Assembly (NCBI RefSeq): GCF_037042905.1 | Contig: NC_087250.1 | Span: forward strand, 8,186,001-8,250,000 | DNA length: 64,000 nt | Direction: 5' to 3' | Source of the DNA: Lytechinus pictus | Taxonomy: Eukaryota | In this document: positions 15,561-51,257 of the stretch, one piece after another | Numbering within the stretch: the first letter of the stretch is position 1 | How the letters are laid out: every line of letters starts with the position of its first letter | The notes under the pieces: model-generated | What the model was told of the DNA's origin: nothing | What the model saw: only the letters and a program-made list of their open reading frames with translations | Databases searched by the model: none | Program-made: the position numbers and the translations under genes

Positions 15561-17299
15561 TAATTATCCTTCGCGTGCAGGTTGATTTCAGCCAGCACTC
15601 GGGATAATTTTATATTTGTCGTACATAATTATAATCAAGTAGTATTGTGCACTATTTATACAGAAAATGAAATTTCATTGATTTTTTTAATTCACGTTAC
15701 AGAGAACGCTGCTCAAAAATAATACTAATTAAATAAAGAAATTTCTACTAACTATATTAATGGATGGATTTTCCTCAAACTTTTACCCATTTTTTTCATT
15801 TTTCTGCGATTTTTACACTAAACTTTTTTCAGCGTGAGCTTCCCATTTAAACATGTTCAAATGTGATGAAATGGATATTTAGGTACGTTCCTGCAAAAGA
15901 ACTCAACCTCAAAAGAAAATTGAAATTACGTGTATAATAAGATGGTTTGCCAGATTTTTTTCAGTATGATGTTTCGACTCCTTGATGACCTAAGTTGATC
16001 TCATCCTCCTCTGAGGATTAACATGTGATATCACCCAAAGATTATTTGTACCAAATATGAACACAATTGATGCAGAAATAACGAAATGAGAGCAAGTTAA
16101 AACAAAATTTGTGAGAAAATGGTGCACTATGGCCTCATATAATTCGTCTTTTGACCCTTGGCTGACCTTTGAACAAAATCATCCTCGTGAACGCAAGCAC
16201 AATAGTAGAGCGGATAAGCCGAACAATTGTGCAAATTATGACTAAAGCATGAAACTTTCACAAGTATTAGTATATGCCGTAAGATTTATTTTAAAGATGG
16301 GAGGTAAATTTTTAAATGCCATTTTCGGCCGTTGCCATGGCAACGGAGTAATTTCCCTCTAGAAAGGTAAAAATATTGGTAAAATGTAAAATACATGTAT
16401 GATCATCATTCCATTTTCCCTAATTTTAAGGTACTAATCGAGATATGTTTGTGACTAAATTTATAAATATAACATCTTAAGCCATTGCCATGGCAACCAG
16501 ATAACATCTGATTTAAAAATAAACAACAACATGGATGACAAGGTTATTGACAGGTGAAAAATACAATGAAAAGAAAGTTATTGTACATGCCCGTAAGGTT
16601 TGACCTACTCAATTAATTTAGGGGAAAATAATACAGTGAGTGTTCTGCATGAACTAATTAGAATGATAAACATTGATGTTGCTTTGGTAAAGCTTGAATT
16701 CAACGATAAATATCAATGTTCCAAATGGCCTGTTGCCATAGCAACGGATCATTTACCCAAGAAAAGTACCAGTTTTTATTTTTGAAAAGGACTGTATAAT
16801 CTGATTTTTCTTTCATTTCCCCTAGTTTTAGGGTAAGAATGGATATGTTTGCTGTAAACATGCAAATAACATCTAAAGTCATTGTCATGGCAACCAAATA
16901 ACATCTAATTTGAAAAAAAAATAACATGGTTGACATGATAATGGACAGGTGGAAAATGCAATTTATAACAATTAACTCAAGGTTTGACCCAGTCATTTAA
17001 TTTTGAACAAAGATTACAGTGTTTCGCATAAGTTCATTAGAATGATGAAATTTGAGGTTGCCTTGGTAATGCTTGGATTTAATGATAAATATCAATGCTG
17101 TATATGGCCCGTTGCCATGGCAACGACTCTTTTTTTCCCAAGAAAAGTACAAAATTTGATCGAAAAACAGTTTAGAATCTGCATTTTGTCATATAAAATT
17201 TGCCCTAATTTTAGGGTGCAAAGCATAAATAATTATCTTTGCTGTTGATATACAAATAACTTAAGCCATTGCCATGACAACCAAATAACATCTAATTTC

Positions 17300-19880
17300 A
17301 GTGGCTTAATTTGGTTTCTATGCAATGGTTTTAAGGGTACATTGGGACTAGTTACAAGGACAGCCAGTGGTCTGATGTGTCCAAAACCCTAAGACGGCTT
17401 CCAAAAATGGAGTTTGAAATGGCTGTTGATATATAAATGGACCGTCATTTCATATCCGTCTGGGATATATGATTTTGGTGTCTAGACCATGGTTTCAATT
17501 GTCAAATAATACACTTTGGCAAGTTAGACGGACAGTCAGTTGTCCAGTATATCAAAAAAATCCAAGATGGCTTCCAAAAATGGGGTCTAAAATTGCTGTT
17601 GCTGCATTAAAAAACGTAGTTTGTCTAATATGTTTATGCCATGGTTAAATGGGTCAAAGAATACATTAGGACAAGTTACAAGGACAGTCAATGGTCAAGT
17701 ATGTCCAAAAATCCAAGGTGGCTTCCAAAAATGGAATATAAAATAGTCCCTGTTACTAACATATGGACATATTTCGTGTAATATCTGCCAAGGGCATATT
17801 ATTTTTATATCTAAACCATGGTTTTAAAAGTCAGTAAATACACCATGTACATTGGAACAAGTTACAAGGACAGTCAGTAATCCAGTATGTCTAAACATCG
17901 AAGATGGCTTCTAACAATTGGAGTCTAATCGGAGTCTGTTACTTAAAAATTGACATAGTTCATTTAAAATCCACCACGGAAAAATTATTTTGGTGTTCAC
18001 ACTTTGGTTTCAAGGTTTAAAAAAATACCTTTAGACTGGTTACAATGATATCCAGTTGTCTAAAATGACTTCTATCACTCAAAAATTATCAGAGTTCATA
18101 CAACATCCACCTTTGAGAAACATTTTTGGTGTCTACACTGTGGTATGAGGGGTCCACTATTTATAGGACAAGTAACAAGGATGGTTAGTTTTCAATTTTG
18201 TCCAAACTCCAAGGTAGATTCTAAAATTACATAAAAATTGGTGCTGTTACTAACTCTAATCTGCTTGCATTTTGAATGTAGGCACCAAAATTACTTCTCA
18301 CAACTGGATATTATATCTACTTCAAAGAAACAACCGTCATTTTAGAACCCATTTATGGAAGCAATCTTGGATTCTCAGGCAAAATGGAAAATTGTAACCA
18401 GTCCCAAAGTATCATTTGATCCTTAAAACCCTATAGTGTAGACACAAAAATAACATCCCCATGTGTATTTTTAATGTACTATGTCCACTTTTAAGTAACA
18501 TTAAAACCCCAATTTTCAAGCCATCTTTGAGTTTTTTGGACACAATAATGACACCTGACTGTCCTTTCAACTTAACGAAATGTACAGTGTTATTTGACCC
18601 TTTAAACAACTAGTGTAGCCACCAAAACCATATCCTTAATGTACATGTATATTATTAATGAAGTATATGTCCATATTGAAGTACCAACAGTCAATTTAGA
18701 CCCCATTTAGAGGCCATCTTTGATTTTTTTACATACCAGTCCACTGACTGTCCTTGTAACTTTTTCTAATGCATTAAACCATGGTTTTATGATTATGGTT
18801 TAGACATTAAAATCATATTCCCCAGACAGATATTGAACAAACTATGTTCTAGTTTATAATTTGACTCTTGAAACGATGGTTTGGACACTAAAGGCAGATA
18901 TAGAATGAGCTATGTCAATTTTTAACAACAGTCAATTTTAGACCCCATTTTTGTAAGCCATCTTGCCTTTTTTAACATACCAGACCACTGACTCTCCTTG
19001 TAACTTGTCCTAATGCATCACTTGACCCTTTAAACTATGGTTTAGACACCAAAATCATATTCCCAGACAGATATTGAACAAACTATGTTTATTTGTAAGC
19101 AACATTAGACATTGTTTTATACCTTTTTTGAAGCCATCTTGGAATTTTGGACATACTAGACCACTGACTGTCCGTGTAGCTTGTCCTAATGTATTATTAG
19201 CCTTTGAAATCGTAGTTAAGACATCATATCTCAAAGGTGAATATAAAATGAGCTATTACACTTTTAAGTATCAGCAGCCATTTTAGAATCATTTTTGGAA
19301 GCCATATTGGATTTTCGGACATACCTGACTGTCGTTGTAACTTGTCCTAATATTATTAGACTCTTGAAATCAATGATTTAGACACCAAAATCACATCCCC
19401 AGGCCGATATGAAATGAGCTACGTCCGCTTTAGGTATCAGCAACCATTTTAGATTCAATTTTTTGAAGCCATCTTAGGTTTTTGGACATTCTCTAGACCA
19501 CTGGCTGTCCCTGTAACCATAGGCGGCGGGGAGGACGGGGGCACCTGTCCCCCCTAAATTTGAGGTGGGGGGGGGGGGGGCGGTCCCCCTAAATGTTTAG
19601 TTGAGAACCTTTTTTTTTTTTTACTTTTCATTTTTTTTCCTGCATACCCCCTAAATTCAGGTGGACCCCCCTAAATATGTTATTGTCCCCCCTAAAATTT
19701 TGGTTGATAACCTTTTTTTTTTTTTTTTTTTGCTTGTCAATTTTTTTACCTGTGTCCATCCCAAAATTTCAGGTGGACCCCCCCTTAATTTTTTCCTTCC
19801 GCCGCCAATGCCTGTAACTTGGCCCAATGTACTACTTGATCCTTAAAACCAATGAATAGAAACCATTTAAAATAAAGCCA
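17300..19880. repeat. Foldback array of ~120-bp tandem units in two inverted arms
   Basis: Units with tccaagatggcttccaaaaatgg on the left arm and the reverse complement (gaagccatcttgg) on the right arm; turn near 18250-18320. Confidence 0.75.
19518..19810. mobile_element. hAT-like G/C-tract MITE, 8-bp TSD
   Basis: CATAGGCGGCGG...CCGCCGCCAATG; TSD CCTGTAAC; same family at 43494-43701 and ~10855-11038. Confidence 0.8.
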
Positions 19881-22604
19881 TTTTATCAAGTAATTGATGA
19901 ATTGTGGATTTTTAGCCTACGGCAGCCAGTGAGGGCACCATCTTGGATTTTTCTGTTACCCTGGAGTGCTTAAATTATTTTCAACCTTTCAACCAGTATT
20001 AAGGGTATTTAAATAAATTTAAATATTTTAATAAGTCTACTTATGTAAAATAACCAGTGAATAGATTACACTTCATGTTGAATATATTCATAATTATGTT
20101 ACTTTAAAAATTATCACAGTATTTCAAAATCAGTAGTGTAATTTTGAGGGGTCAGATATGACGTATCGAGCAAAATTTATTTTAAAAAGTTGTCAGCAAG
20201 CCCAGCGAAAGAGTAAAACTTTCGAAATTGTTCATAACAAAAATAAGATTTTGAAAAATATTTTCGGTATAGTATTGGTAAAATGATTATATTTCGTCCA
20301 TCTCCTTTTCACTTTTCTTTATTTTTTTCTTGGTAATTATTTTTTTTGGGGGGAGTAGGGTTGCAAAATTCCCGGGAATTCTCTTGATGGAAACTTTAAA
20401 CGGGAATTTTGTGGGAATTTTTTTAATTTTCTGCAATTTTCAGGAATTTTCAAGAAATGATGTGAATTTTCAAAAAGTAACAATTTTCTGATATCTATAT
20501 GCAGAAATTGAAAGGCGTACCCTGGCAGATGATGCTTGATAGTGCTTTGCCATCAAATTTCATGCCAAGTATTATGCTTAAACAGCTGACTGTTTATACA
20601 AGGCATAATTTTAATGATTTCCATGTAAAAGTTGATTTACTGTATTTACTTTGATTAGGAGTTCAAGACCATGTCAACTCCTGTTGTCAAATAGACTTAA
20701 GATTTTGATTTATCAACGCCTATAATCCCCTTATATATTGATATGATGAACGGCTTTAAAGCACAATTCACCCCAAGACGCTTTCTTCAAAATGGCCGCC
20801 TGCGAATACTTTGAATGAAATTGTCCAGCATCGAAAGTTTCGGGAATTTATTTAAGCCCCAAAAAGTCTGAAATGATTTTTGTAGGTCTTATTTCGATGC
20901 CATGTATAATGAAATAAGATGGTGCTTATCATTTAGCATATTTATGTTCAGCACCCTCAAATAAGTGTAAAGGAAATAAAATTAACATATTTTTATCAAC
21001 ATTTGTACCTTTCTGGGGCCGTTGGCAACATTGATATTTATCATTATTAGTCCAGGATAGGCCCCATAGAGAAGGGGTCGAACCTTGTTTTTTTATATAT
21101 ACAATGTTTTTTAACGGTTTTATGTCAATTCGAGGGTGCTGATTCCGAATCTGAATGATGCCACTCGCGTAACCTTGAGCGTTTTCCGCAAATTGGCAAA
21201 ATCCAAGATGGCCGCCCAAAATAGGTTTTGGGCCATGATAGTCATTAAAGTTCACATTTTATGACCTTAAAATGTTTCTAAATGTGATGTATGCCTGTAG
21301 CAATATCTGAAAATTATTTCTTACCTAATATTAGTAATTTTTCATGGTAAAAAATTATCTTTTTGCCTTTCAAAATGGCCGCCATTCATGTAATTTGAAA
21401 CATTATGAATTGGAAAATTAATATGTGAAGAAAGCTTAGGGCAACGTCACAGGGTGCGCATATTTATTAATGAAAACACTAAACAATAATCAAAAGGAAA
21501 CAAAAAATATACTATTTACTTACCTTTTGGATAATAAATTCAATATTTAATGAAATGAACTGGAAAGCCCGTAGGCATATCTGTGGTATATATTTAAAGA
21601 TACTTTGTAATTATCCAAACCTTTAATGCTAATGGGTAAAAGACCACACGCCGCCTCGTGATTGTATTCCACAAATTCAATTGAAATAAAAAAAATTATG
21701 TACAAAGCAAACACATAGGCAACTGATCACAGCTTAAATGGCCATAATCAGCTTAAATGGCAATAATTTGTAACAATATAGCTGCCTTTTCAGCTTACCT
21801 GTATACCCATTAACTGGCACGCGACTTGGTATGCAGCATCTTAGAACTGACCCAGGGTTACGTTAATGAGGTAAGTTGAGATATTTTCTTAATGTTCTTT
21901 GAAGAAAAAATCTAATAAATAGGGATTTTAACTCAAATATATGAAACAACTATTCACTAAAACTGTGTATGGCCTACCTAATATACAGACCCACATACTC
22001 ATTAGATTGTGGCTAATGATGACATTGATAAGTTGACAAATAAGACTGCATCATCGTATATTTTTCAGTGCAGTAGATTGTTTTATATAATGGCCATGTT
22101 GTGGTTGATAACTGCTCTACTTTGTCCCCTCATACAGATATATACTTACCGTAAAGTGGTATTAACAAGATTATCATTATACCTTTAATTCGATTTGGTC
22201 AAAAGTGATGGTTATAGCAGATTGTTCAGACCAGGGAACAAAATAAAAAGAAAAAAAAGAAGGCACGGCACTTTGGATTAAAAAAATGGCATTTGAGAAG
22301 CAAAACATTTGAAATCAAAATTCTTATGATCATTTATTTAAAGGAAGTAAGCTTTTTTCAGCCTGACTTTTATGATAATGGATGGCTTCATTTTGTGGAA
22401 TGGTGTATAATATTTAACTTCTTCCAATATTTTTTTGGGTCGGAATTCCCTGAATTGCTATACTACAATCTGATATATTCAATATTCAACCCTAATATTT
22501 CATCAGACATCCTATGCTCCTTTTAAAATCTGCGATTTTATTTCTACGGCATTTTCTAAACCATTTGTGCTTATTTTATTCCATATGCCGAAGCAGAACA
22601 TTTC

Positions 22605-22607
<3 letters not shown>

Positions 22608-22685
<78 letters not shown>

Positions 22686-22686
22686 T
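22608..22686. repeat. (TA)n microsatellite
   Basis: ~40 TA units upstream of the transposase acceptor at 22790. Confidence 0.95.
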
Positions 22687-22803
22687 GTTTACGGCAATGG
22701 GGGAGGTAGCGTCCACTTTGGAAGGATAAAATTTGAAATAAATGAACAATCAGAGTTCTTGATATTTTGATGTTTTCAATACCCCTCCAGCTTACCTGGG
22801 ACG

Positions 22804-25800
22804 ATGGCAGAGGTTTGCATTATATGCCAGATGAGTGGGGAGAAGCCACTCACCTTGTCTTCGAGAGTAGCAAGTTTTCGAAGTGCAAGTCGCCAAAGAG
22901 GTGATGGATTAAGTGATTGCCTCCTTGAAGATACCACATCATTCAGATGTCACCGGGACTGCATTAGTACCTACTGTTCTAAAAACCACATCAAAAGGTA
23001 TTTGAACAAATTGAAAAGGAATATACCACCACATCATTATAATAGTCCCAAACGACTGAGAAGGAATTCAGGTGAATTTGATTTCCTACAACACTGTATT
23101 TTCTGTGGTGATGAATGTGACATCAAGCGTCCTCATAAAAATCCTGGTCGTTGGAGACAGTCTTACTTGTGTAAAACTGCAAACGGAAAAGATAATTTAT
23201 CATGGAAAGACAGCATCCTGGAACGTGGCAAAAACCGTGGCGACAAGTGGGGCAGGGATGTCATTTTCAGAATAAGTTCTGTTTTAAGTGAGCTACATGC
23301 AGCAAAGGCGCGCTACCACAAAGACTGTATGACGAAGTTTTTCAGTAATGCACCCCCTAAAACGAAGACTGTGTCTGACACAGCGCTTGAAGGACTTAAG
23401 ACTGAAATGCTGTCTGATCGCTCACGAATTTGGAATAGCATTGAACTATACAATCTTTATCAGGAGTTGGGTGGAACTCGACTATCACGACGTTTGCTCA
23501 TTAACCACCTGGAAGCTGCTCTACATCCTGATATACTAATCCTGTCATCACCAGGTGTTTCATCAATATTTGCATTCAGGAGCAAGGCAGCAACACGTCT
23601 CCGGATAGAAGATGATTTTGAGGATGAATGCCTGGGGAGGGATATCTCAAATCTTGGGAGGAAAATCAGAACCGAATGTCTTAACCATCGTCCTGATCCT
23701 AACACATACCCAATCAGGTTAACCAGGGACTTTGTCTTAGGTGAGTCGGGATGGAATACTTAAATATAGTGTTGCATTTAATGCTCACACACTTCTTGTC
23801 ATCGTCCAACCTTGCAATTATCTTTATAGGGATGTGTCTCATAAAATTTCCAAAAGTTGTTCTATACTCACCCTTTTTCAGTCTTTGCGCCTCAAAACGT
23901 AAATTCTTAAATTTTTCTTTCTTTCTAACGTTGTATCAGTTAAATCTTTGGATTAAACCCTTTGCTTACCTTATCCTCTTCTTTCTCCAGCTGGATGCAG
24001 TGAAACGATATTGGCTCTACTAGCTGAGATCGACCTGCAGTTGGATTCTTCCTTACAAGCTATGATGATAAGCAATATCATTCTTGGTGTCGTTTGTGGT
24101 CAAGCAACACCGCTTCAACTTGGACTGAGTACAATGCTAAATAAACAGCGAGGCATTATAGAGCAGTTATACAACTATGGTGTGACATCTTCCTACAACG
24201 AAATGCGCCGCTTCAGGATCTCTGCTGCTGCTTCTATCGCAAAGGATAGACGAGGGATGTCAGAATTTGATAGCCGAAACGGGTTAGTTCAGGTTGTCGC
24301 TGATAACTTTGATGCTAACATTTCATCCCCCAATGGTCAGAAAACAACGCATGGTCTAGCCATGGTGATTACCCAAAATGGAAAACGAAAACACATTCCA
24401 TCTCAAGATGACAAAGATGTGCCTACCATAACAAGAAAGAAATGGGATCAGATAAAAGCAGCAAATTTGTAGTTAGGAGAGGTCAGTCTACAGCGTAGCC
24501 GAGGAAACAAAAAAGCTGAGATGCCAAATGAGTGTGCCCACAGATGTGTACCAAGGCTCTCATTTCTTGCCAGTATGCAGCTCTCCAAGATGAAAGCCGA
24601 GTCCAATGACATGGCTTTTCTCCATTCGGTAACAAGCGATGATAAATGTCCGGAGTACGGAGGTTTCAATACCAAGCATGCACGTGAGTCTGGGGAGGAG
24701 CCAAAGGCCAAGACAAGAGTGGCCTACACTCCATTTCTAGACATGACACCTGCCGAACCTGACACAATGAAAACAGCAATGGTTCAAGCACAATATTTAA
24801 CGTCATTGACAAGACAAGAGCTTACGATCATGACATGTGACCAGCAACTCTACCAGGTGGCAGTCAACTTAACCTGGAGCAACAAGACCCTCTTTGGAAA
24901 GTTCATTCCCAGACTCGGCGGCATGCACATGCTGATGAGCTTCATTGGAAGCATAGGGTCTTTGATGTCAGGAAGTGGGCTAGAGGATATTTTGAAATCA
25001 ACGTTCGCAGGAGTTCCAAAACTTCTGTCTGGAAAAAAGTTCCCTCAGAACTTTAGAGCACTTCGACTGCTTGTAGAGGAGATCCTAAGACCAATATTGA
25101 ATGGCCATCAATTCAGAGATATCGATGAATTGATTGATACCATCGGAAAACTCAGCAGGACAACCAAACTGTGGATCGACTGTCTTGTGAAGCCCATAAT
25201 GATCTGTATGGCTTTTGTGAGGGCTGAGAGGGAATCTGACTGGTCTCTACACCTGCTTGCAGTTGAAAAAATGCTACCATACTTCTTCGCATCTGGACAC
25301 ATCAACTACGCCCGCTATGGATTGTACTACTTCCGATCCATGCAGCGTCTCCCCCCTGCATTATTTAAGCAGTTCATGGACGGAGAGCACACTATGCGGC
25401 ACCAAGATGGCCTGTGGAATGGCATCTGGTCTGATATGTTCATTGAGACAACATACATGCGACATGGTAAGGGACCGGCTGGCATTATTGGATCGACTTT
25501 GAATGAGGCAACTGTTACCATATGGGCTTTGTCTCTCAGTGTGCTTGGACAACTGAAGGATGATCTGGCAGCAATGCAAGAGGAAAGAGAGCAAGAATTA
25601 ATGTCTCACAAAGAAGAAAGTCTTACGAGGATAAGATCTGATGCACTTGACAGAATGAAGATACGTGAGGCCTTATCAACTTGGATTGATGTCTTAGACA
25701 GCAAGAAACACCCAACCACAGGCATTGTAAACATCTTCACTGGTCAAGTTGTTGACAATAAAGAGGTCAATGTTGATGATGCAGTCAGAATAGGAACAGA

Positions 25801-27406
25801 TCAAATGGTGCAGTACGAAAGAAAATGGCCAAAAGGGTTTCACGAAACCATAAAGAAAAGGGTGAAAGTGATGTCAAAGGCTTCACCGACAGCAAAGGGG
25901 CAGGGCACATCTCAAATTGTGAATACAGAAATGATCTATGCACGAGTAATCGGAATCTTGGCATCATCAAGAGTCTCAATCTCAACAGACACTTTGTTTT
26001 CGTACGAATTGGCCCGCTACCCACCAGCACTATTTGATGGGAATGGTGATGCACGTTCCACAAGCAAGTCTGTTCTGAAGGACAGGATCAAAGTGGAAAG
26101 TGGTTTGCGTAGTTCAGCAGTTCCTGAAGTCATAATTCTAGATGGTTGTGCTCTTCTGTGGACTGTTCCTTGGCCTAGTTCTCCCGCAAAGGTGTCCGAC
26201 TTCGTTGATGCTGCAGTATGTATCATCATGAGATACGTCGAATTTTCATCAGTTCTTCATGTGGTGTTTGACAGGTATTATGAGAACAGCATCAAGTCAT
26301 GTTGCCGTACATCACGCGCAAAGGGATTCACCCGTGTATATAGGCTCATCCCCGAGTCCCCTCTACCTAAACAGAACATCGTCCTAAACATCTCTGCAAA
26401 CAAGGAACAGATTATAAAGCTGATTGTTGACCAGTTGTGCAACCAACGAGTACCAGAGGACAAGAAGGTAGTTGTGACAGGACCGGATCCACACCCGATA
26501 TATGTTGGCATTGGAGTACTACCAGAAGCAGTGACACATGAAGAGGCTGATGTTATAATGGCTTACCACATGATAAAGGAGGTTAATAATGGACACACAA
26601 GTGTTAAAGTTGTGTGTGACGACACCGATGTTCTCGTCATACTTGCACATCATTTGTTTTTCCAAACGAATGGTTTGTCACGCAAGGTAAAATTGGTGAT
26701 GGAGTCATGTTCAAGTAAACGAACAGTCATCGACGTCAATGAGGTAATCTCGAAACATGAGAAAATCATGCCCAATCTTCTTGCTGCACACGCTCTGACC
26801 GGATGTGACACTGTGTCATGCTTTTCAGGTGTGGGAAAGGCTTCAGCACTGAAAGCTTTAGAGTCGTATTCTGACACTCTCCTTCTGGGAGATCCAGCAG
26901 TGGCACTTGATGAGGTAGTACATTCTTCCTTGAAATATGTATCTTTACTTTACAGAGTGGATTATCAAGACACTCTTGACACAGCACGCAAGAAATTTTT
27001 TGCAAAGAAAGCTGGTGGAAAGCGTCACCTACCACCGAAGCTGAGCAGCCTTCCACCTACCATGGCTGCGTTTCGACCACATTGTCAGCGTGCCAGCTAT
27101 CAAGTAGCCTTATGGATGGCTGCTGGCAACCCTGAACCTCCAAATTTAGATCCTAGTCTGAACGGTTGGTCAATGAAGGGATCGTCTCTTCAACCCATCT
27201 ACCTGGCAAATGATCATCCAGTGGCTCCTGACGAGGTTCTTAACATCATCAGGTGTGGCTGCAAGGGGGACTGTAGTTCTGCAATGTGTAGCTGCACCAA
27301 GTCATCTTTAGCCTGCACTGAATTCTGTCATTGTAGAGCTGATCTTCGGTGTCAGAACCCAATGAAAACGACTTCAGAAGATGGAGAAAGCGAAAACTCC
27401 GAATAA
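22804..27406 (+). CDS. Academ transposase (~1450 aa; DDE domain + XPG/PIN-like nuclease + C-terminal Cys8/CXC), 2 coding exons, one in-frame stop
   Basis: Exons 22804-23740 (G|gtgagt) and 23991-27406 (ctccag|), phase 1. Motifs VADNFD, TCDQQLY, LGGMH, GHINYARYG, SDMFIE; PIN motifs DGCALL, VFDRY, HEEAD, DDTDV, LTGCDTVS..G.GK; CGCKGDCSSAMCSC...CTEFCHC. TAG at 24470-24472 with the frame continuing to 24521. Confidence 0.88.
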
Positions 27407-29372
27407 GACGATACTGCTGAACGATGCTAAGTTTGCAGAAGTTCAACTTGGGTTAGAATTGATAAAGACAAACTGAATTTGGAACTTTCATTTTTCGTTT
27501 GTTCTGAATGTGTGACAGATTTCACACCGTATTTATTTAGGTGATCAACTTAAAGAACATTACTTTATGTTGAGTGAACATTTCATATTTGTAGATGCTT
27601 ATTACATTACGACTGCTGTTCACAGATGATTCCACATAAAAATTATCTTATAATACACATACAGCTCTCGCCGTGAAGCAGAGCTCAACTGAGAACAACC
27701 TCTCATTGACCATGTTGACCATTCCTTCAAAACAACCTACGGGGAGATTTTTTCCTTTTTGGGGGTAATGTTTAAGGCTGCATGATGGCAATTTTAGAAA
27801 AAAAATGTTTACTTTATCATACATGTGCAACGATATTTTAGTTATGCATTAGCAAATCAAATGATTTATTATCTATTTTAATTTAAAGTACCTAAAAAGA
27901 GGAAAACGATTGTCAAAAAAGTTTAATGGCCTAATTCATCACCCAAGTGGCCGTTAATGTCAGGGTCACATTTCATTTTGGAGGCCATGTTTATTTTTCA
28001 AATTTGTAGAAAGTTCAAACGTTTATGCGAGTATGATCATAAATATCTCGATTTAGTTTCGAGCGTTCAAAAGTGAGGGAATAAGTTATTCAGGTTTTGT
28101 TCCAGTTAACAGTATGAAGTTCTTAAAATGATTTTGGTGGTTATTTTGGATATTGCACTTGCCTTAACCTGTCAAAACCAATGACAGCTAGTTGTTAGAC
28201 ATATCCTACGGAAGTGAAATCTTTTACATTTATAATCAGCTTGAAGAAAAATGATATGAGTTGTGGTTTTAAAGGTAAAAGCACTATTAAACTGTGAAAT
28301 AGATTTCTATATCAAGACATTTTGCATTGATTATGTACGGGTGTGTCCGAATTTCGCGCATGACCTTATGTCTCGCACGACCATTCAGCTGAATTGTTTA
28401 GGATATTCCCAAATCTCACATAGTCCACATAAATATGTATTTATCCTTTAACGTAAATCTCTTTTGGATGCGATGAATATTGGTTAAAAAAAATACCGTT
28501 AATGTTTTCGCATTTCATGCCAGTTCCCAGATAAAAAAAAAAAATCTGGAAAGCAACATGGAAACACCAATTTGCAAGTATATATCAACCAAAATATAAT
28601 AAAAATATGGTATAGACAGATCTTATAGCCTTTAGCCATCTTTTAAATACAAAAAGCTTTCCTTTTTGGCATGAATTTTCGGATAAATCTCAACAAACCG
28701 CATATGCCCGAAACCTTTTCAGAATCCTTTTTTAGCACAGCACGCCACTCATCTGCATTAGATCTTTTTTTTAGTTCCCGATACCGGCGTAACACATTGA
28801 CCTCATATTCATTTTTTTCATTATTTTTTTCATCTACGAATTTGCTGTCAACATGGTTATTATAATTTTAATTTTTTTTGTTTAGGAATATATTTTAATC
28901 TTATAATGATCATTTGCTAAATGTGCGCGAAGTTTGGACACCCTTTAACAGGTGGATATATGGGCGGCGGCCATTTTGAAGTGAAATTACCGCCATATCA
29001 CCATAGCTACAATGAAATTAATGTGTGCATATAGATGTAAAACGTCTCAAGTAATAAAATATGTTGATTAAAAAAGAAAATGTGTCATATTGTGCAGTAA
29101 TTAGGATATTTTCTGAGATAAAACCTAATTTTGACGGCCATCTTGGATTTTGCCAATTTGCGGAAAATGCTCAAGGTTACACGAGTGGCATCATTCAGAT
29201 TCGGAATCAGCACCCTCGAATTGACAAGAAACCATCAAAACATATTGTATATATAAAAAAACAAGGTTATGCCTCTTCTATCCTGGACTATATGTTCAAG
29301 CATTACCAAATCAACATCCTAATGGATTCATGCATGACACTTAATGTAACTTTTGTTCAAAATTAAAAGAGT

Positions 29373-32484: not shown

Positions 32485-35400
32485 TAGTCTGGTCTGTTAG
32501 CGAAATTATGTGGACACGGTGGACAAAAGCGTGATTTTTTCTCCAGACCTTTGTTTGTGTATAAGAGTTAAGAATGGGGTATGCTCCAAAAAATCTGGCT
32601 GCAGGAACAGAGAAAAAATGGGTGAAAATGTCAGAATTTATGAGTTTAGATTGGTCTGATATATAGACTAGCGCTAGTGCAAAACTCAATAGCAGTGCAT
32701 TATTTTGCATTGGATTAGTTCTTGAATTCAGACCCTTTTTGAACAGATCTTCTGCTTGTCCTCACATCTCAATGCACCAAATATCTGAAAGCAGATGCTA
32801 AACAAGCCGAAGGGTGACGGTGGAGGGGGTTGAATGTTGGTGTGTATGTACATATTTTGGTCTTGGGGTAAAGATGTGCAATACATATTTTTTTTGCATG
32901 TGTTGGAAATTGTGTTGCCATGGTAACAGTGTATCATTGCAAAAATAAGGTAAAAATCTTGCAGTTAGAACTACTTCCTCTGTTTTCATCCGATTCTCAT
33001 GAAATTTGGCACACACATTGGTCTTGAGGTGAAGATGTCTAAGATACATATTTGTGTGTCTTTCAGAAATCTTGTTGCCATGGTAACAACATATCATATG
33101 GTGAAAATTGGGAAAAAAACTTACAATTCAAACTGCTTCATCAGTTTTCAATCAATTCTCATGAAATTTGGCACAAACATTGGTATTGAAGTAAAGATGT
33201 ACAAGGCACTTTTTGTGTGTGTTTCATAAATTGTGTTGCCATGGTAACAACATATTATATGGCAAAATTTAGGTAAAAAACTTGCAATTTGAACTACTTC
33301 ATCAGTTTTGAGCCAATTCTCATGAAATTTGGCTCACACATTGGCCTTGGGGTAAAGATGAGCAAGAACCTTTTTTTTGCATTTGTCAGAGAGTGCATTG
33401 CCAGGGTAGCCACATATGATAGCCAGAAATGCAGGAAAAACTCATTGTGGATCAAACTACTTCCCCTGTTTTTAGTCAGTGCTCATTAAAGTTGGAAAAA
33501 ATATTAATCTTGGGGTAAAGATTCATATTAAATTCTAAATGTCTTCGGTGCATTAAAATGTTCACGCCAGAGTGTGGGGGTATTAATCACCTTCATTAAT
33601 ATTTCTAGGTTGTGGGGGGAGGGGCGGGATTGGTCCTTAAAATCTGACATCAAAATAAAGAAGGTTAAAGGCGGTGGCCATTAGAAATATAAAAATGATA
33701 AACACTCTTAAAAAACGCATCCCCTCAAGGCATAGGCTGGAGGTACACTGGGTGAATGTGAAACCTTCCGCTGAGGCAGAGGAGTTCCAACACTGGCAAG
33801 CAAAATGAAATGTGCACCCCTTCTACTTTCAACAGCTGATTTTCCAAACCTTAGTTCCACCTCATCAAGATGTTCACCCCTCCCCATACCACTTTTAGTT
33901 CTACATCCCCATACTCAAACCAGTCTACACCTTTGCCCCTCAGGTGTCTTTGCATTTTTAAAGCTAGACATTACTCTTTTTTGTGGGGGGGAGGTCTTTA
34001 GAAAATGACCTCATAAAATTTAAAGGATTATGACTAGGAACTTAATCCCCCCCCCCCCGAAAAAATAGGGGCTGATTTATTTTTTTAGCAGAAAATACCC
34101 CCCCCCTTTAAAAGACCATTCATTTGAAGTTTAGTGCATTCTGATTTGATAAAAAATTGTTAACGGTACCCAATTAACCATTGTAACCATTATTCTCCTA
34201 CTCAGTCTTTTATTCATATTCCGTTCCTACTCTTTCTTTTTAACTTTTAAATCACTCTTGATTTTGAGCTTCACCATACTATCTCCTTATGTTTCCTCTC
34301 TCTCTCCAAGTATATTTTTTCTGACATATTTTAAAGTGTACCTTTAATCATGCAACTAATTATAGAAAAGCAAATATATACAAAAATCTCTGCCCTTGTT
34401 TTAGAAATTCACTTGCAAATCCATGACTTAATAACATACCTTATCAAAAATATACATATGTGCACAATAAATGTTAGCCTTCTATTTTCTTTCATTTAAT
34501 TTTTTCAGTTTATTTCTGTGACAGCCCCTGCTTTATACATCCTACATCTCTCATTGTCAAAAAATGAATATTATGTTTCAGTAGCAAAATTGTTGGATGC
34601 AAACTCTGACTGTCATAAAAACAAATTGGAGTAAAGCCAAACTTTACATAAGGGATATGACTAGAATATAATTATATGTAGAGAAACTTTTCTTTCTCTA
34701 CATATAGTGATATCACTTTCAGAAGGTGGTTACTGCAGGAATGGGAAAACTCAGTGATAAAACTAAAATTTTCGGAAAATAACTACATCCATTTTTGTCA
34801 AGCAACAGTTATTCAATTCTGAATGCTACATGTACAACCTTGTTAATATGAATTTGATGTACCTTTACCAAAATATAATATCATGACAGTCATTTCTTCA
34901 ATTTTTTAAAGTAGACATTAAATATTGCTAATAGTATCGACAGAGTGTAGCCAAAATGGAGTTTAAAAGATTATGAAGAACAAAAAATAAATGTCATGCT
35001 ATTATATTTCAAAGCAGAATGTTTTAGGCTTTACTTTAATACGCTGAAGTGTAAAGGATTTTTCTCCCCCTTTTTTTTTTTTGGGGGGGGATTAAGTTCC
35101 TAGTCGTAATAATTTCCTTTTACTCTTTATGTGGCCCCCAAAAAAAAATTGGAAGGGGTGTTTTTTTAAGAGTGTTTAATTTCCTAATGGTCATGGCCTT
35201 TAACCGTCTATATTTTTATGTTGTCAGTTTTTAAGGACCTTCTCCGCACCCAAAAAAGAACCTATAAATAATATTGAAGGTGATTAATACCCTGCGCTAT
35301 TGTATGATGTTATAAAGGGGAATCCAACCCAAATAAACACTTGTTTTAAGAGGAAAATGAAAAATCAGACAAGTTAATAGGTCAAAGTTTGAACAATATC

Positions 35401-36975
35401 GGACAAACCATAAGAAAGTTGTGAATATATAAAAGTTGTAAACATTGGTAATCGCTGTACCCATGAAGACTTCAAATTGACCGCGTATGTGATGTCATAG
35501 TGATGTAAGGCAAGGACCACTCTTCCATGTACTGGAATAATTAATTGGCTAAAATTTAATTTTTTCAAAAGTTTTACTTCAAATTATATCTTTCTTTCAT
35601 GAGGACATAAAACATACTACCAGGTTTATATTACAGCCCAATGGAATACGGATTTAGGAGAAAACCAAAAATCTTGATAACTAAGTACTAGTCTTATGGG
35701 AAAGTTGTCCTTGCGGCCTCACCCCTTGTCATAATTTACTTACCCAGTTGCCAATTTGAATTCTACATACTAGTAGCCTTAGGGATCTTAATTTGAAAGC
35801 AGCCATAACTTTATTTTGCTTGTCCGATTTCTTTCAAACTTTCACCATTCTTCTTTTTCTCCTTTTCATGCACACAACATTATGACCAAGGCTGGATTCC
35901 CTTTTAACACTGAATATGAATCTTTACCCAAAATGAATATTTGTGTCAACTTTTATGAGCACAGGCTGAAAACTGAGAAGCAGATTGATCCACAGTGAGT
36001 TTTCCCCATATTTCTGGCTATATGTGGTTACCAAGGCAATGCACTCTCTGACAAATGCAAAAAAAAAAGGTTCTTGCACATCTTTACCTCAAGGCCAATG
36101 TGTGAGCCATAATTATTTCATGAGAATTGGTTCAAAACAAAAAAATTATGAAGTAATTCAAATTGCAAGGTTTTTACCTAAATTTTGCCATATAATATGT
36201 TGTTACCATGGCAACACAATTAATGAAACACACACAAAAAGTGCCTTGTACATCTTTACTTCTATACTAATGTGTGTGCCAAATTTCATGAGAATTGATT
36301 GAAAACTGATGAAGCAGTTTGAATTGTAAGTTTTTTTCCCAATTTTCACCATATGATATGTTGTTACCATGGCAACAAGATTTCTGAAAGACACACAAAT
36401 ATGTATCTTAGACATCTTCACCTCAAGACCAATGTGTGTGCCAAATTTCATGAGAATCGGATGAAAACAGAGGAAGTAGTTCTAACTGCAAGATTTTTAC
36501 CTTATTTTTGCAATGATACACTGTTACCATGGCAACACAATTTCCAACACATGCAAAAAAAATATGTATTGCACATCTTTACCCCAAGACCAAAATATGT
36601 ACATACACACCAACATTCAACCCCCTCCACCGTCACCTTTCGGCTTGTTTAGCATCTGCTTTCAGATATTTGGTGCATTGAGATGCGAGGACAAGCAGAA
36701 GATCTGTTCAAAAAGGGTCTGACTTCAAGAACTAATCCAATGCAAAATAATGCACTGCTATTGAGTTTTGCACTAGCGCTAGTCTATATATCAGACCAAT
36801 CTAAACTCATAAATTCTGACATTTTCACCCATTTTTTCTCTGTTCCTGCAGCCAGATTTTTTGGAGCATACCCCATTCTTAACTCTTATACATAAACAAA
36901 GGTCTGGAGAAAAAATCATGCTTTTGTCCATCGTGTCCACAAGTAGGGCATTTTTGACGCTAACAGACCGGACTA
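32485..36975. mobile_element. Non-autonomous Academ-type element with >1-kb near-perfect inverted arms
   Basis: TAGTCTGGTCTGTTAGCG...CGCTAACAGACCGGACTA, TSD TTA (32482-32484, 36976-36978); mirrored ORF-track entries (32798-33097 minus vs 36353-36652 plus). Confidence 0.88.
35316..35903. mobile_element. Kolobok-like MITE inserted in the right arm of the 32485 element
   Basis: AGGGGAATCCA...TGGATTCCCTT flanked by ATAA/TTAA; absent from the mirror arm. Confidence 0.6.
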
Positions 36976-39149
36976 TTATGCCATATTAGTCCAGGAAAAA
37001 TAACTGATTTTGGGGGTAAACCGCAAACAAATTGCAATAGAATTTTTTTTACCACAATGCATTTTCTTGAAGTCCCCAAAATGACATACTAAAAGTCCAG
37101 AAAAATCCCAGTAGTGGAAAGACGTCTAATTTGCATAAATCCAAAATGGCCGCCAAATTTTCAGAAAATTTGAATTTTCGTACATAGATTTTGACATGAA
37201 CATGTAATTGCCACAAAATTAGTGTCATATGAAAGAGAAATAAATTTCCTACAATTTGGTACTATTTATAGGGGATAAAAAGATAATTTGGCTGAGATTT
37301 TTTAGTAGAAAACTGCATTTTTGTCATTTTTTCCCAAAAATTGAAAATTTTGAAAATACATGATTTTACATAAATCTGAGAAAAATTAAGCAATTACCTT
37401 GAAATCTTTCAGAAAACTTTATTGATATACTATTATCATGTGGATGCAATTCTAAATTGGTGTCATTCTTTTTAACAAATTTATAAGGTATCAAAGTTGA
37501 ATATTCAAATTTTACAAATGTCGTTTTTGTATGCATTTTCGTAGACTAATATGTATAAAGTGTAGAGTACAGTAGTGAAAGATTGTATGCATTTATCTGC
37601 ACTTTTTAACCGCTTAGTTAAGATTAGGCTTTTCTTTATCAGCTACATAAAAAGGCAGGTACATTGACGCCTACCCCTCTCAGGGGGCTGTCAAAGTCAC
37701 GCCCGCTGGCTATATCATGCTGTACAGTGTGTATCAAAATAAACGCAACCACATTTCATTCCAAATTTGTGAAAAATATGTTAGCTTTAAAGTCTCGGAA
37801 AAATTACTGATTTAGGGGGTCAACCTCAAACAAATTGCACAATAATTTTTGTACTGCAATGCTTTCCCTTGATGTCCCCAAAAGTTCATACTAAAAGTGT
37901 TTTTAAAATCCATGTAGTGGAAAGACGTCTTATTTGCATAAATCCAAAATGGCGGCCATCGCAAGAATTTTCAGTAATGTTTACTTATAGTAGTACAAAC
38001 ACTTGTCTGATCATAGCACTTTAAAAAGTTATGATTAAAGCATTTACCTTTCACCAGTGTTATATCTTACCATAGGCTTTGTCTTAAAATTAGAATGCAA
38101 GTCAGATTTGGCCTCTGCTGACCTCTAGAGGTCAATGACCTCAAGGTCAACGACCTCAAAATATCGGAAAATTAATGTTTTGCATCATTAGCTCATGATA
38201 AATGTAATAATAATGCACACACAATTATTATTTAATATTGACTTTCAAGGTAACCTGATATTCTGGAAAGAATTTTGTGTATTAAAAATGTTGACCTTTG
38301 ACCCTGGAGCAATGGAAAAGGTCAATTACCTTAACATATTACAATATTGATACTTAGCATCAGTGGTTTATGATAAACAGGCCTCTCGTGAAAAAAAAAT
38401 ACAATACAATTTATTTCAGCACAATGCATTTCCATGAAGTCTCCAAAATGGCATACTAAGAGTCCAGAAAAATCCATGTAGTGTAAAGACATCTAGTTTT
38501 TGCATAAATCCAAAATGGGGGCCACCGTGAGAATTTTACATTTTTACAAATAATGGTAAAAACACTGGTCTGATCATACCACTTAAAAAATAATCATAAA
38601 AGCATTTAACTTTCACCATAGGCTTCATTTTAAAATTCCAATGCAATTCAGATTTGACCTCTCCTGACCTTTTGAGGACAATGACCTTAAGGCCAATGAC
38701 TTAAAAATATTGATGTTTTGCATCCAGAGTTCTTGATTAGCATCATGTTATATCAACTTGTGTTTGAAATTTGAGGATCTCAAAAGAAATTTGACCTTAA
38801 ATGTAAAAATATTGGTACTCGGCATCACTGGATGATATGATAATGTTTTGAGGTAATTGACTTTTCACTTTCCTCAGTAGTCAAAATGTTGAGATCTGCA
38901 ATCTTTACCCAAATGGTCTGTTTAAAATAACAAAACTATATCATATGTATAGTTGTAAGTTTGTAACTCTAGGGGCACGTTTCATAAAGAGTAACTTTGC
39001 CATTATGGCAACTACCATGGCATTAGGGTTCAGCAGCAAATCAAAATCAAGGTTACCATGGTAGTTGTCATAATGGCAACGTTGCAACATTTGTAACTCT
39101 TTATGAAACGGGTCCCATGTCTTTTTTGGCTAGTACATTCTGAATGAGG

Positions 39150-40370
39150 TTAGAGCATTGGGAGGTATTGAAATGATATCTGAAATGCCTCAATTATTTT
39201 TTTGCACTTATCATCTATGTATACTTCCCGAGAGACTTGCAAGTTTTCCCATCTAGATTGTAACCTGGTGTAGTTGCTCATTAGAAGGGAGATGCAGCTT
39301 ACCACGATGCTGGTTGGCACTGCACTTCTCTTCCCATAACTTGCATAATGGTGACTCTGTCAGTGGTTTCACAGAATTAAAAATATGTTTCCTAGATTTT
39401 AGGCTTTTTCAGCTAGTTTGGCATCATAGATTTGATGGACGCTATATCTTCGCTGAGAGCTCTGTGGTCTAGCTACTGGTCTGCGTATATCAGATGGGCA
39501 ATTACCTGACAGGAAATACAGACCCTTCACATTGTTTTGGCTTTAGATAGTTTGTGATAGTCCCACAAGTGTTGTCTAGAGGAAGATGTGTCCAAGACAG
39601 CACATGCACACTCTGTAGCAGAGTATTGGTGGAGGAGTTTGTCAGTTCCGGAGAAGGTTATTATGGATCCTCACTTTCCACCTTCACTCTAAATGTGACT
39701 GATCAAGGTTGACAACAAGATATATTGCATGGTCGCAGTGCTGGAATGGAATTAAAACTATAGGTTGTTTTGAGTTTCCTCAAAGCATGAGGATTGTGGG
39801 TATGAAACAAGCCAACCTTGGTCTTTGGGTTTGAAGACTGGACTCAAGCAAGAACAAGCTACCCTGAGAGAGTCAGTTCTTTTGAATTCTTTACCTGCTG
39901 GTCTTCCTGTTGAGCTCCATAAAGAGATGTCTGTTTTCTAGTAGAAGTTTGATGACTTTGGTCAGATGAATGTCATCAATGATTTGTATAGTTGTACGGG
40001 TAGACCACAGTATCAGATGCAGCTGCTAATTCAACAATTTTCTACACCAGTTAGTTAGTTACCGTATCAAATCGGAAGTCCTCAGTGAACTGAGTCTGGT
40101 TGAGAACCTAGCCTGTATATTATTTCCAAAGTTAAGAACCAGCCTGGTTAGGAATATGATATGTTGTTCTATAATGGGACCATTTTTTTTTAGGATGAGA
40201 TGCTCAAGTAGCTTGTAGAGATATCAGAAAAGGGTGATTGGCCTGTAGCTTTTAGGCACATTTGGATCTTTCCCAGGTTTGAGGAAGTACTTCAGCCTTC
40301 CTCAAAATTTCTGGGAGATTTGTGTAGCACATTGTTAAACAGGCTGACAAGCTATTCTGAAGTATGGAAG
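39150..40370 (-). pseudogene. Degraded non-LTR reverse transcriptase fragment (Ingi/Vingi-like)
   Basis: Minus-strand LKPGKDPNVPKSYRPIT..YLYKLLEHLIL, QAG and SQGS remnants with stops and frameshifts. Confidence 0.55.
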
Positions 40371-40374
40371 CTTA

Positions 40375-40890
40375 AGATGTTCATATAATCATCTCGTCAT
40401 GTCTACATCTCTTAAGGAAAAGAGATAAGATGACGAAATCTCGGATCTCGTCATGTCTACATCCTGTGTGAGAGATGATCAGATGGCAAGATCTTGGATC
40501 TCGTCATGTCTACATCCTGTGGGAGAGATGACCAGATGACATGATCTGTGATCTCATCATGTCAACATCTTTTAGAAGAGATGACCAGATTTGTGATCTC
40601 GTCATTTCTACATCTTTTAGAAAAGATGATCAGATGGCAAGATCTTGGATCTCGTCATGTCTACATCCTGTAAGAGAGATGATCGCTGACAAGATCTGGG
40701 ATCTCGTCATGTCTACAACTCTTAGGGAAAAGGATAAGATGACAATATGATCATCTCTCCCACAGGAAGTAAAAAATGACGAGATCCAAGATTTTGCCAT
40801 CTGATCATCTCTCACACAGGATGTAGACATGACGAAATCTAAGATATTGCCATCTTATCCTTTTCCGTATGCGGACATGACGAGAAATCG
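40375..40890. repeat. Foldback element with tandem gatctcgtcatgtctacatc subrepeats
   Basis: TIR agatgttcatataatcatctc / gagatgattaaatgaacatct; ~8 forward and ~3 inverted subunits. Confidence 0.7.
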
Positions 40891-43493
40891 GAGATGATTA
40901 AATGAACATCTGGGCGGCAGATCAAAATGTTTCATTTACTCAGAGTGGTGTCACCGAAGCGTGCTACCTTTCCCTTTTTTGTTCCTTCAATTTCAATATC
41001 CAGGTGAAGTCTCAATTGGACTGGTCCCATGGAAGATATCCACATAGTAAACTAGTTAAGTTTAATATTCTAAATGAATTGACCTTTGAAAGTTTCAGGG
41101 TCAAAGGTCACAACTTTTAATACTCGCAAATTTTCTCATTTATCAAGGGGCCTTATAAGTTAACGAATTGTTTTGATGAAAACATAATTTTTTATGATAT
41201 TCCGACTTCAATTATCATTGCCTCTAGAGTTCAGCACAGGTCAATTCTAAATTGCATCCGATTTTTAAAATGAAACCTAGATGATAAAATATAACAGTGA
41301 TGAAAGTTTACGCTTTAATCATATTCTTAGTGTTATGATCAGACCAGTATTTGTACTACTACGATTAATCATATTTGATCACTTTTGATGCCAATAAGAC
41401 GCTTTTCCACCACTTGGATTTTTCTGGACTTTTAATATATCATTTTGGAGACTTCATGGAGATGCAATGTGTTGAAAGGAATAGTATTACAATTTTTACA
41501 CATTGAGGCCTGTTTATCATATATGCTTAGCGTCAATATTCCAAAATGTTAAGGCCATTGACCCTTTCTAGCTCTCCAGTTTTCAAAGTTCAAAGTTTAT
41601 AACCCACCAAATTATTTTTAAAATACCAGCCAATACCTCGGAAGTCAATATTGAATAATTTTGTTTTCATTATTACTATTTTTATCATGAGCTAATGATG
41701 CAAAACATTTTTTTTTAAAATATATTTTGAGGTCATTGACCTTAAGGTATTTGACATCTAGAGATCAGCAGAGGTCAAATCGGACTTCCATTCATTTTTT
41801 TAAATGAAGCATATGGTAAGATATAACACTGATGAAAGTTCAATGCTTCAATAATAATTTTTAAAAGTGCTATGATCAGACCAGTGCTTGTACTAATAAT
41901 CATAAAAAGTTTTCATGATGGTCGCCATTTTGGATTTATGCAAATTAGACGTCTTTCCACTACATGGATTTTTCTGGACTTTTAGTATGTCATTTTGGCA
42001 ATTTCATGGAAATACATCGTGCTCAAATAATTGCAATTTTTACACTAGAAGCCTGTTCATAAATCGGAGATGCTACTTGTCAATATTCTAAGATGTTAAG
42101 GTCATTGACCTTTTCCAGCTCTCCAAGGTCAAAGGTCAAGATTTATGACCCACCAAATTCTTTCTAAAGTATCAAGATACCTTGAAAGTCAATATTGAAT
42201 CATTTGTTTTCATTATAACCATATTTATTATTTACTAATGATGCAAAACATCAATTTGCTGATATTTAGAGGTCATTGACCTCTAGAGGTCAGCGGAGGT
42301 CAAATATGACTTTCTTCTGATTTCAAAATGAAGCCTATGGTAAGATATAACACTGGTAAAAGTTTCATGCTTTTATCATAATTTTTGAAAGTGCTATGAT
42401 CAGAACAATGTTTGTACTACTATCAATAACCATCAAAAATTCTTACGGTAGCCGCCATTTTGGATTTATGCAAATTAGACATCTTTCCACTACATGGATT
42501 TTTCTGGACTTTTAGTATGTCATTTTGGTAAATTCATGGAAATGCATCGTGCTCAAATTAATTGTATTGCAATTTTTACACTAGAAGCTTGTTCATAAAT
42601 CCGAGATGCTACTTGTCAATATTCTAAGATGTTAAGGTCATTGACCTTTTCCAGCTCTCCAGGGTCAAAGGTCAAGACTTAAAACCCACCAAATTCTTTC
42701 TAAAATATCAAGATACCTTGAAAGTCAATATTGAATCATTTTGTTTTCATTATAACCATATTTATTATTTATTAATGATGCAAAGCATCAATTTTCTTAT
42801 ATTTAGAGGTCATTGACCTTAAGGTCATTGACCTCTAGAGGTCAGCGGAGGTTAAATGCGACTTGTATTCTGATTTTAAAATTAAGCCTATGGTAATATA
42901 TAACATTGGTAAAAGTTTCATGCTTTTATCATAATTTTTGAAAGTGCTATGATCAGAACAATGTTTGTACTACTATCAATAATCATCAAAAATTCTTACG
43001 GTAGCCGCCATTTTGGATTTATGCAAATTAGACATCTTTCCACTAAATGGATTTTTCTGGACTTTTAGTATGTCATTTTGGGGACTTCATGGAAATGCAT
43101 TGCGTTGAAAAAAATTATATTGCAATTTGTTTGCGGTCAAACCTTATTTTTCCTGGACTATATGGATGCATTTTAATGATTATGTATTTATTATGTTTTA
43201 TGTATTATGTTTTATGTATTACGTACTATGTGCGCTTATGAATATTATTTTGGGCCATCCAAACAAGCCTGATGAGCTTTCATTTGGTCCACCACTATTT
43301 TAAAATGAACTTGTATATTGCTTTGTATATATTTTAATTTTGTGGAAATAAATGAAATGAAAAAAAAAAAAAAAAAAAAAAATGTTAGTTTTGGTTTAAC
43401 TTGCTCTCATGCGTTTCTTTCTTTCTTCTTGCATCAATAATGTGATCTCACTTGGTACAAATGATCCTTGCATGGGTAATTAATACTACATGT

Positions 43494-51047: not shown

Positions 51048-51257
51048 AGTAAGTCAGAATGATAATTCACACCAATATAGCGATACCGAATGTAGAAAAC
51101 AGTACACAGACTTACATATGTGGGACACATGCAGGAATGACTCTCAGAAAGCTGGCGAAATCCAGTTCAAATCACAGTTTGCAGATACATAACAGAGTTC
51201 AGAGAGAAGAATATTAACTGTTCTACGGAAATAGGTAACTTTTCACCGCTGCCATCA

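Follow-up and report, generated by a model that had tools for sequence, protein, structure and literature searches.

The ends of four Academ-type DNA transposons, E1 through E4, found in a 64,000 bp stretch of Lytechinus pictus DNA (positions 8,186,001 to 8,250,000 of the forward strand of contig NC_087250.1, RefSeq assembly GCF_037042905.1; this whole stretch is called the window here, and its own numbering is used), are bipartite and asymmetric. A terminal block that begins with TAGT is separated from the rest of the terminal inverted repeat (TIR) by a non-matching spacer, and that spacer is about one helical turn longer at one end of each element than at the other. The same arrangement recurs in the genomic copies of the four elements and in most of the related families whose two ends could be resolved, and it is replaced by symmetric ends in one family, Fe, that belongs to a sister clade. 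The explanation we prefer, and to which we attach about as much confidence as doubt, is that these are bipartite ends of the AcademX type with a one-turn offset, that the active transposition complex is assembled on one short and one long end, and that this is a property of one clade.

End structure of the window elements and their genomic copies

All four window elements have TAGT termini and perfect 3-bp target site duplications (TSDs), which are CAA, TAT, TTA and TAT for E1 through E4, respectively. E1 (16203..31862, unstranded) is non-autonomous and has E2 nested inside it. Its left end is the short one, with a 17-nt block at 16203-16219, the 2-nt spacer CG at 16220-16221 and an AAAGC motif at 16244-16248; its right end is long, with the block at 31846-31862, an 11-nt spacer at 31835-31845 and AAAGC at 31808-31812, and the repeat resumes at AACAATTG. 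E2 (21048..29290, + strand) is a coding copy whose left (5') end is long and whose right (3') end is short; its 13-nt blocks occupy 21048-21060 and 29278-29290, the spacers are 20 nt (21061-21080) and 9 nt (29269-29277), respectively, and the repeat resumes at AACCTTG. E3 (32485..36975, unstranded) is non-autonomous, with an 18-nt block in which position 6 is T at the left end and C at the right end. Its short left end has the block at 32485-32502, a 6-nt spacer at 32503-32508 and AAAGC at 32526-32530, its long right end has the block at 36958-36975, a 16-nt spacer at 36942-36957 and AAAGC at 36920-36924, and the repeat resumes at TGTGGACAC. E4 (36987..43160, unstranded), also non-autonomous, has 17-nt blocks at 36987-37003 on its long left end and 43144-43160 on its short right end, followed inward by spacers of 16 nt (37004-37019) and 6 nt (43138-43143), after which the repeat resumes at ACCGCAAAC. 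We note that the four related elements all lie within 27 kb, and that E3 and E4 are separated by a gap of 11 bp (36976-36986) which consists of both duplications and 5 nt. A scan of the window and of all loci for TAGT elements with 12-nt identical tips gave none beyond the known elements; E3, with its mismatch at position 6, escaped it.

Global alignment of each left end with the reverse complement of the corresponding right end gives nearly identical arms that can be aligned over about 155 nt (E1), 180 nt (E2) and 165 nt (E4), and over more than 400 nt in E3. The sole indel within these stretches is a net length difference of 9–11 bases, located 13–18 bases from the tip. The genome-wide copies were collected by searching the 811-Mb assembly with exact patterns composed of the terminal block, a variable gap and the resumption motif, and the counts of ends and of pairs were made by hand from the printed match tables. 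These patterns matched 1061 ends of the E2 family, 107 of E1 together with the related family Fb, 359 of E3 and 88 of E4, and the reversed-pattern control gave no match in any of the end-pattern searches.

Each of the four families has two discrete end lengths across the genome. Among the first 100 of the 1061 E2-family ends, 47 have a 20-nt spacer, one has 19 nt and 52 have 9 nt. This family consists of two subfamilies that differ in spacer sequence and agree in spacer length, which is 20 nt for both long spacers (GCCCCATAGACAAGGGGTCG and GCCCCATAGAAAMTTGACCA) and 9 nt for both short ones (AAGGGGTCG and AAGAGGCAT). The ends of the E2 family are mostly paired 2–4 kb apart, which corresponds to roughly 500 non-coding derivatives beside one coding copy. 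The E1 pattern search listed 100 of its 107 ends, four of which are Fb; the commonest long spacer is the 12-nt TCCAAAAATCAC and the short one is CG, which makes the family offset 10, and the window copy has lost one A from its long spacer (11 versus the majority 12 nt). The spacers of E3 are 16 versus 6 nt (100 of 359 ends listed), and the complete set of 88 E4 ends contains 43 with 16 nt, one with 27 nt, one with 14 nt and 43 with 6 nt.

When convergent neighbouring ends are taken as pairs, 129 of the 131 pairs among the matches listed for the four families consist of one long and one short end. For E2 these are 38 of 38 (convergent neighbours within 11 kb, among the first 100 matches), for E3 43 of 44 among the matches listed, the exception being two short ends 11 kb apart, for E4 33 of 33 (30 by the exact pattern and three by a relaxed one), and for E1 15 of 16 among the matches listed, with one short/short pair. 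The two short/short candidates have no perfect duplications (ACA versus ATA in one and TTA versus TTT in the other). Two arrays of ends were also seen: four E3 copies lie head to tail at C3:76209371-76228537, with a 2-nt overlap between the long end of one copy and the short end of the following one, and same-strand short ends of the E1 family are arrayed with a 4264-bp period at C3:31884882-31927565. Both arrays are whole elements in tandem with abutted tips.

These genome-wide counts refute the idea that the asymmetry is an accident or an artefact of alignment, that is, four unrelated indels that merely look alike, and we give it next to no probability. The borders between block and spacer do move by 1–2 nt with the alignment, but the net offsets are independent of the choice of border, and they recur in hundreds of copies as well as in four of the five further families described below. 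The coordinates, blocks, spacers and resumption motifs that the initial annotation had given for the four elements were all reproduced here, and its description of bipartite ends that are asymmetric by about one helical turn is borne out by the arm alignments and by the two end classes in the genome. The collection of genomic copies that it had proposed yielded the two lengths per family and the predominance of long/short pairs just described. Its offset of 9 for E1 is correct for the window copy, and the family value is 10.

Further families, the internal box and the symmetric sister clade

Additional families were found by a protein search of the genome with P0001, the 977-codon frame of E2 (see below), and were chosen without knowledge of the outcome; both ends could be resolved in five of them. 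The sole close match in that search was E2 itself, at 100% identity, so E2 is the only coding copy of its family found. The remaining 49 matches listed are all at most 38% identical, and they include about a dozen distant families at 24–38% identity to P0001, several with intact frames of 1100–1700 codons; the transposases of the other resolved families are only 21–27% identical to P0001. E3 and E4 have no DNA similarity to any coding locus, and no E4-type long end was found near locus L049. The nine resolved families are thus E1 through E4, Fb, Fc, F32, Fd and Fe, all from one genome, and outside this set lie Ff, the element around L049, and the families L033/L048, L045, L046 and L047. Ff has no inverted repeat within 13 kb around its frame, and the breakpoints between copies L033/L048, L056/L060 and L039/L053, which were inspected as possible termini, include none that is terminus-like.

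The offset is 10–11 nt in eight of the nine resolved families (10, 11, 10, 10, 10, 10, 10 and 10) and 0 in Fe, and no family among the nine has an offset of 1–8 or of at least 12 nt. Four of the five families beyond the original four, Fb, Fc, F32 and Fd, have an offset of 10 nt. In Fb (1347 aa, TSD TTA) the 3' end is TAGTAGAGCGGCTAAG-CACCAAAATCG, and the 5' end has a 10-nt insert, ACCCAAAATA, after position 16 that is an imperfect tandem copy of the adjacent 10 nt, CACCAAAATC; six of the seven 5'-type ends of this family span 177–178 nt, compared with the 168 nt of the 3'-end query. The spacers are 4 versus 14 nt in Fc and 5 versus 15 nt in F32 (1498 aa, TSD TAG). In Fd (1689 aa), two copies of which have the TSDs AAT and TAG, the repeat resumes 25 nt from the tip at one end and 35 nt from it at the other.

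Fe differs from all of these. Its 120 genome-wide ends form a single length class (43 nt in 99 of the 100 listed and 39 nt in the remaining one), and its two arms align without an indel over their first 570 nt, at 99% identity. Four Fe copies are mutually 98–99.6% identical, and evidently these symmetric ends are mobile. Over the 43 nt searched, almost every one of the 100 listed ends has the same sequence, and in the copy at C10:16953018-16961750 the inverted arms are about 1 kb long, with inner aligned blocks that fall to 62–100% identity, which suggests that the family was active very recently or that its arm tips have been homogenised. In a midpoint-rooted maximum-likelihood tree of nine transposases, which has long branches, Fe and Ff form one clade (support 100/99) and all of the asymmetric families belong to the other, and therefore end asymmetry is a trait of one clade and not of all Academ elements.

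Five families, E1, E3, Fb, Fc and F32, also share an internal motif, an AAAGC whose first base is at position 42 when counted from a short tip and at position 51–52 when counted from a long one. When the five families are compared without gaps, identity averages 0.68 over positions 1–17, 0.40 over positions 18–41 and 0.74 over positions 42–56, where 0.27 is expected at random for that composition. The conserved box comprises AAAGCRTGA and a T-run, and beyond it comes the long subterminal inverted repeat. This high identity of block and box, against the low identity of the spacer between them, shows that the ends are two conserved boxes joined by a less conserved spacer of fixed length, with one extra turn at one end. 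Two features of 12/23-type signals are thereby present: two conserved boxes around a less conserved spacer, in these five families, and two spacer classes about one helical turn apart with one of each per element, in eight of the nine.

A second motif lies farther in. ATGGCCGCC is found about 150 nt from the tip in E2 (window 21208-21216), E4 (window 37146-37154), Fb, Fd and Fe, often beside TTCAAA or TTTGAA and sometimes as an inverted pair; where present it is 147–150 nt from short and symmetric ends and 156–161 nt from long ends. It may be a binding site, given the Cys-rich, CXC-like C-terminal region of the predicted transposase.

The results from the additional families change the picture drawn in the initial annotation in three ways. 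The families had been taken to be largely unrelated in sequence, and they are not, since TAGT termini and an internal box are common to them; one conserved ancestral trait is therefore likelier than four independent indels. Asymmetry had been attributed to Academ-type elements in general, and the single length class and matching arms of Fe contradict this. The proposed 12/23-like pattern accordingly extends beyond E1–E4 to four of five further families and stops at Fe.

Origin and possible role of the offset

If our preferred explanation is correct, cleavage would have to occur at the terminal TAGT block of 13–18 nt, and the extra 10–11 bp, one helical turn, would sit just inside the block of one end and place all internal sites of that end one turn further in. 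The transposase or a partner protein would touch the DNA at the tip and again at the internal box; an additional full turn would leave tip and box on the same helical face and yet make the two ends non-equivalent. Assembly of the active complex would then take one end of each length, as in the P element (9/21) and the recombination signal sequence (RSS; 12/23), and the sister clade represented by Fe would work with symmetric ends. A pairing requirement of the 12/23 kind is a plausible hypothesis. The stronger proposition, that a true 12/23-like rule evolved independently in the AcademX clade (the TAGT block to the AAAGC box spanning 42 versus 52 nt) and is lacking in the symmetric sister clade, we regard as a tentative possibility, on the doubtful side.

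It might be supposed that the offset is neutral, a single ancestral 10-bp duplication that was inherited within the clade and has no effect on transposition. The families are indeed related through their common TAGT termini and AAAGC box, the Fe copies show that symmetric ends can be mobile, and descent explains the pairing of long with short ends. Yet the offset persists in insert and spacer sequences that have diverged beyond recognition (0.40 identity versus 0.27 at random) and across transposases as distant as the 21–27% given above; whatever process homogenises the arms, which are near-identical over hundreds of bases, has spared this one difference; and offsets of other sizes (1–8 or at least 12) are absent from the resolved families. 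We consider a neutral origin and persistence unlikely. The constant feature of the inserts is their length of 10–11 nt and not their sequence, and because this length is constant while the inserts are of at least three unrelated types and the arms are otherwise near-identical, the data argue that the offset has been maintained rather than merely inherited.

The inserts also bear on another interpretation, in which the extra segment is not a spacer but an additional site of specific sequence, where the transposase or a host factor binds or bends the DNA, and one that sets the order of end binding or cleavage or regulates activity without any rule that pairs short with long ends. A core of CAAAA is common to the inserts of E1, E3 and Fb (CCAAAA in E1 and Fb), its reverse complement is present in those of Fc and E4, an A or T run of 4–7 occurs in five of the eight inserts, the Fb insert ACCCAAAATA repeats its neighbour CACCAAAATC imperfectly, and the insert of E4 reproduces, in inverted orientation, a CCCCAAAATGA motif that lies in the subterminal region about 85–97 nt in. 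However, the inserts of E2 and F32 are of another type, GCCC(C)ATA..., and that of Fd is unrelated; A and T runs are frequent in sequence of 64% A+T; and the constancy, as said, lies in length. We judge a dedicated extra site to be somewhat improbable as the explanation, and it is in any case compatible with assembly on one short and one long end and not exclusive of it.

Several observations weigh against the explanation we prefer. Pairing of a long with a short end in nearly all copies is expected in any case if they descend from a long/short master, and therefore the pairing alone shows no requirement for it. The families share ancestry, so that eight of nine does not represent eight independent events. 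Fe, which has symmetric ends, a 1540-aa open frame and the TSD AAG, shows that related enzymes manage with such ends. AAAGC is not at 42/52 in E2, E4 and Fd, of which Fd has a similar sequence 1 nt off, and the two terminal blocks of Fd have just TAGTA in common. The A/T-run motif that E1, E3, Fb, Fc and E4 have in common in their inserts could mark an extra binding or bending site. Across families there is no fixed link between the long end and the side on which the gene lies. Finally, the protein-DNA contacts in the proposed mechanism are predicted ones, and the sequences come from a single genome.

E2, Fb, F32 and the Fc copy L037 have their long end 5' of the gene, and Fd and another Fc copy, at C6:6897385-6903912, have it on the 3' side; in the Fc copy L039 the short end is 5' of the gene and the 3' end was not found. 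The side of the long end relative to the transposase frame thus flips between copies of Fc (L037/L062, C6:6897385-6903912 and L039), from which we infer recombination between the long inverted arms that turns over the interior of the element. Fd and some Fc copies, in which the long end lies 3' of the gene, speak against a role of the extra 10 bp in the transposase promoter, and we rejected that idea as the principal explanation.

The predicted transposase and comparison with other transposons

E2 holds the only long reading frame of the region. Its transposase frame (23957..27406, + strand) opens with 171 codons, is interrupted by an in-frame TAG (24470-24472) and continues as the 977-codon frame at 24473-27406 that encodes P0001, in which a FEN/XPG-like nuclease fold is predicted at about residues 550–900, ahead of a Cys-rich C-terminus. 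A DNxD motif in the 171-codon segment upstream of the TAG aligns with the consensus of the relatives. P0001 matches no Pfam family and has no significant sequence match in PDB by phmmer or profile search; four of nine relatives of P0001 match Pfam DUF6589, for which a literature search gave no related paper. An AlphaFold model of P0001, made with nine relatives from the same genome, has a mean predicted local distance difference test score (pLDDT) of 62, with most 10-residue blocks of residues 550–900 at 70–87 and a poorly modelled N-terminal half. The best Foldseek matches of this model in PDB are plastid exonuclease 1, the T5 flap endonuclease, human Exo1, FEN-1 and Rad2 (E from 1.9e-4, probability 1.00), and the only folds matched at E ≤ 0.001 are nucleases of the FEN/Exo1 type. 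In a protein language-model atlas P0001 lies beside clusters from molluscs, cnidarians and arthropods labelled "Tesmin/TSO1-like CXC domain" (scores 0.93–0.95), and its other neighbours are unnamed. The CXC domain family binds DNA. To our knowledge, no Academ transposase has been characterised biochemically.

AcademX transposons are described, in the part of PMC10045372 that deals with them, as having 3- or 4-bp TSDs and encoding a nuclease. Duplications of 3 bp flank E1–E4, Fb (TTA), F32 (TAG), Fe (AAG) and Fd (AAT and TAG), and the predicted fold of P0001 is of the XPG/FEN type, so classification of these elements as AcademX-type cut-and-paste DNA transposons fits that description, the nuclease half of the match being a modelled one. 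A further long coding region, P0002, is a 1016-codon frame on the minus strand at window 46935-51053 with an adjoining 355-codon frame; its translation looks like the gag, protease and reverse transcriptase of a long terminal repeat retrotransposon, and it has no relation to the end asymmetry.

The architecture described here amounts to a concrete map of the likely DNA recognition by an Academ transposase: a tip block, a spacer of fixed length and an internal box. If the pairing rule is true, helical-turn asymmetry would be a recurrent solution to the problem of making transposon ends non-equivalent, which would bear on how the 12/23 rule of antigen-receptor recombination could have arisen from ordinary transposon ends; a true 12/23-like rule in these elements would be the third unrelated origin of such asymmetry, after P elements and RAG/Transib. 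One genome holds asymmetric families with intact frames (Fb, F32 and Fd) together with their symmetric sister Fe, and so offers a natural comparison in which no gene has to be altered. No description of end asymmetry in Academ was found in a full-text literature search, the scope of which did not extend to Kojima 2020 or Repbase, so a prior description is possible.

Among known systems the Drosophila P element is similar in that a tip repeat and an internal box stand at two distances about one helical turn apart. Its ends are described in passages of PMC7776569 as a 31-bp TIR, a spacer of 9 or 21 bp and a 10-bp transposase binding site, flanked by 8-bp duplications, and the 9/21 spacing is there called "reminiscent" of the 12/23 RSS; the E2 spacers of 20 and 9 nt are numerically near these values. 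Unlike the P element, which belongs to an unrelated superfamily, the elements described here have duplications of 3 rather than 8 bp, an offset of 10–11 rather than 12 bp, and a predicted FEN/XPG-like fold in place of a THAP/GTP-binding transposase. In piggyBac, according to the portion of PMC2532691 concerned with its ends, 13-bp terminal and 19-bp subterminal repeats are separated by 3 bp (5') or 31 bp (3'). The order of terminal block, non-matching spacer of unequal length at each end and resumed inverted repeat is the same there as here, but the difference of 28 bp is not one turn and the superfamily is another one.

A further parallel is with RSSs and with RAGL-A transposons, which likewise have two conserved boxes and a poorly conserved spacer in two lengths about 10 bp apart. 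The sections of PMC10629977 on these TIRs report a 10-bp spacer asymmetry for RAGL-A and its absence from those of RAGL-B (BbeRAGL-B), a contrast of asymmetric and symmetric sister lineages that parallels the main clade and Fe here. The differences are that the TSD is 3 bp here and 5 bp in RSS/RAGL-A, and that the internal box lies 42 or 52 nt from the tip, compared with the heptamer-12/23-nonamer order of the RSS. No recombinase kinship of P0001 with RAG1/Transib or with the P transposase was seen in the Pfam, PDB sequence or fold comparisons; with the N-terminal half of the model poor, this is weak evidence against such kinship. P0001 and the 3-bp duplications resemble the AcademX combination of short duplications and a nuclease-domain transposase (here a predicted fold). 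The pairing rule is proven for RAG and is proposed from sequence for the present elements; the likeness claimed between them is one of working in the same way and not of membership in the same group.

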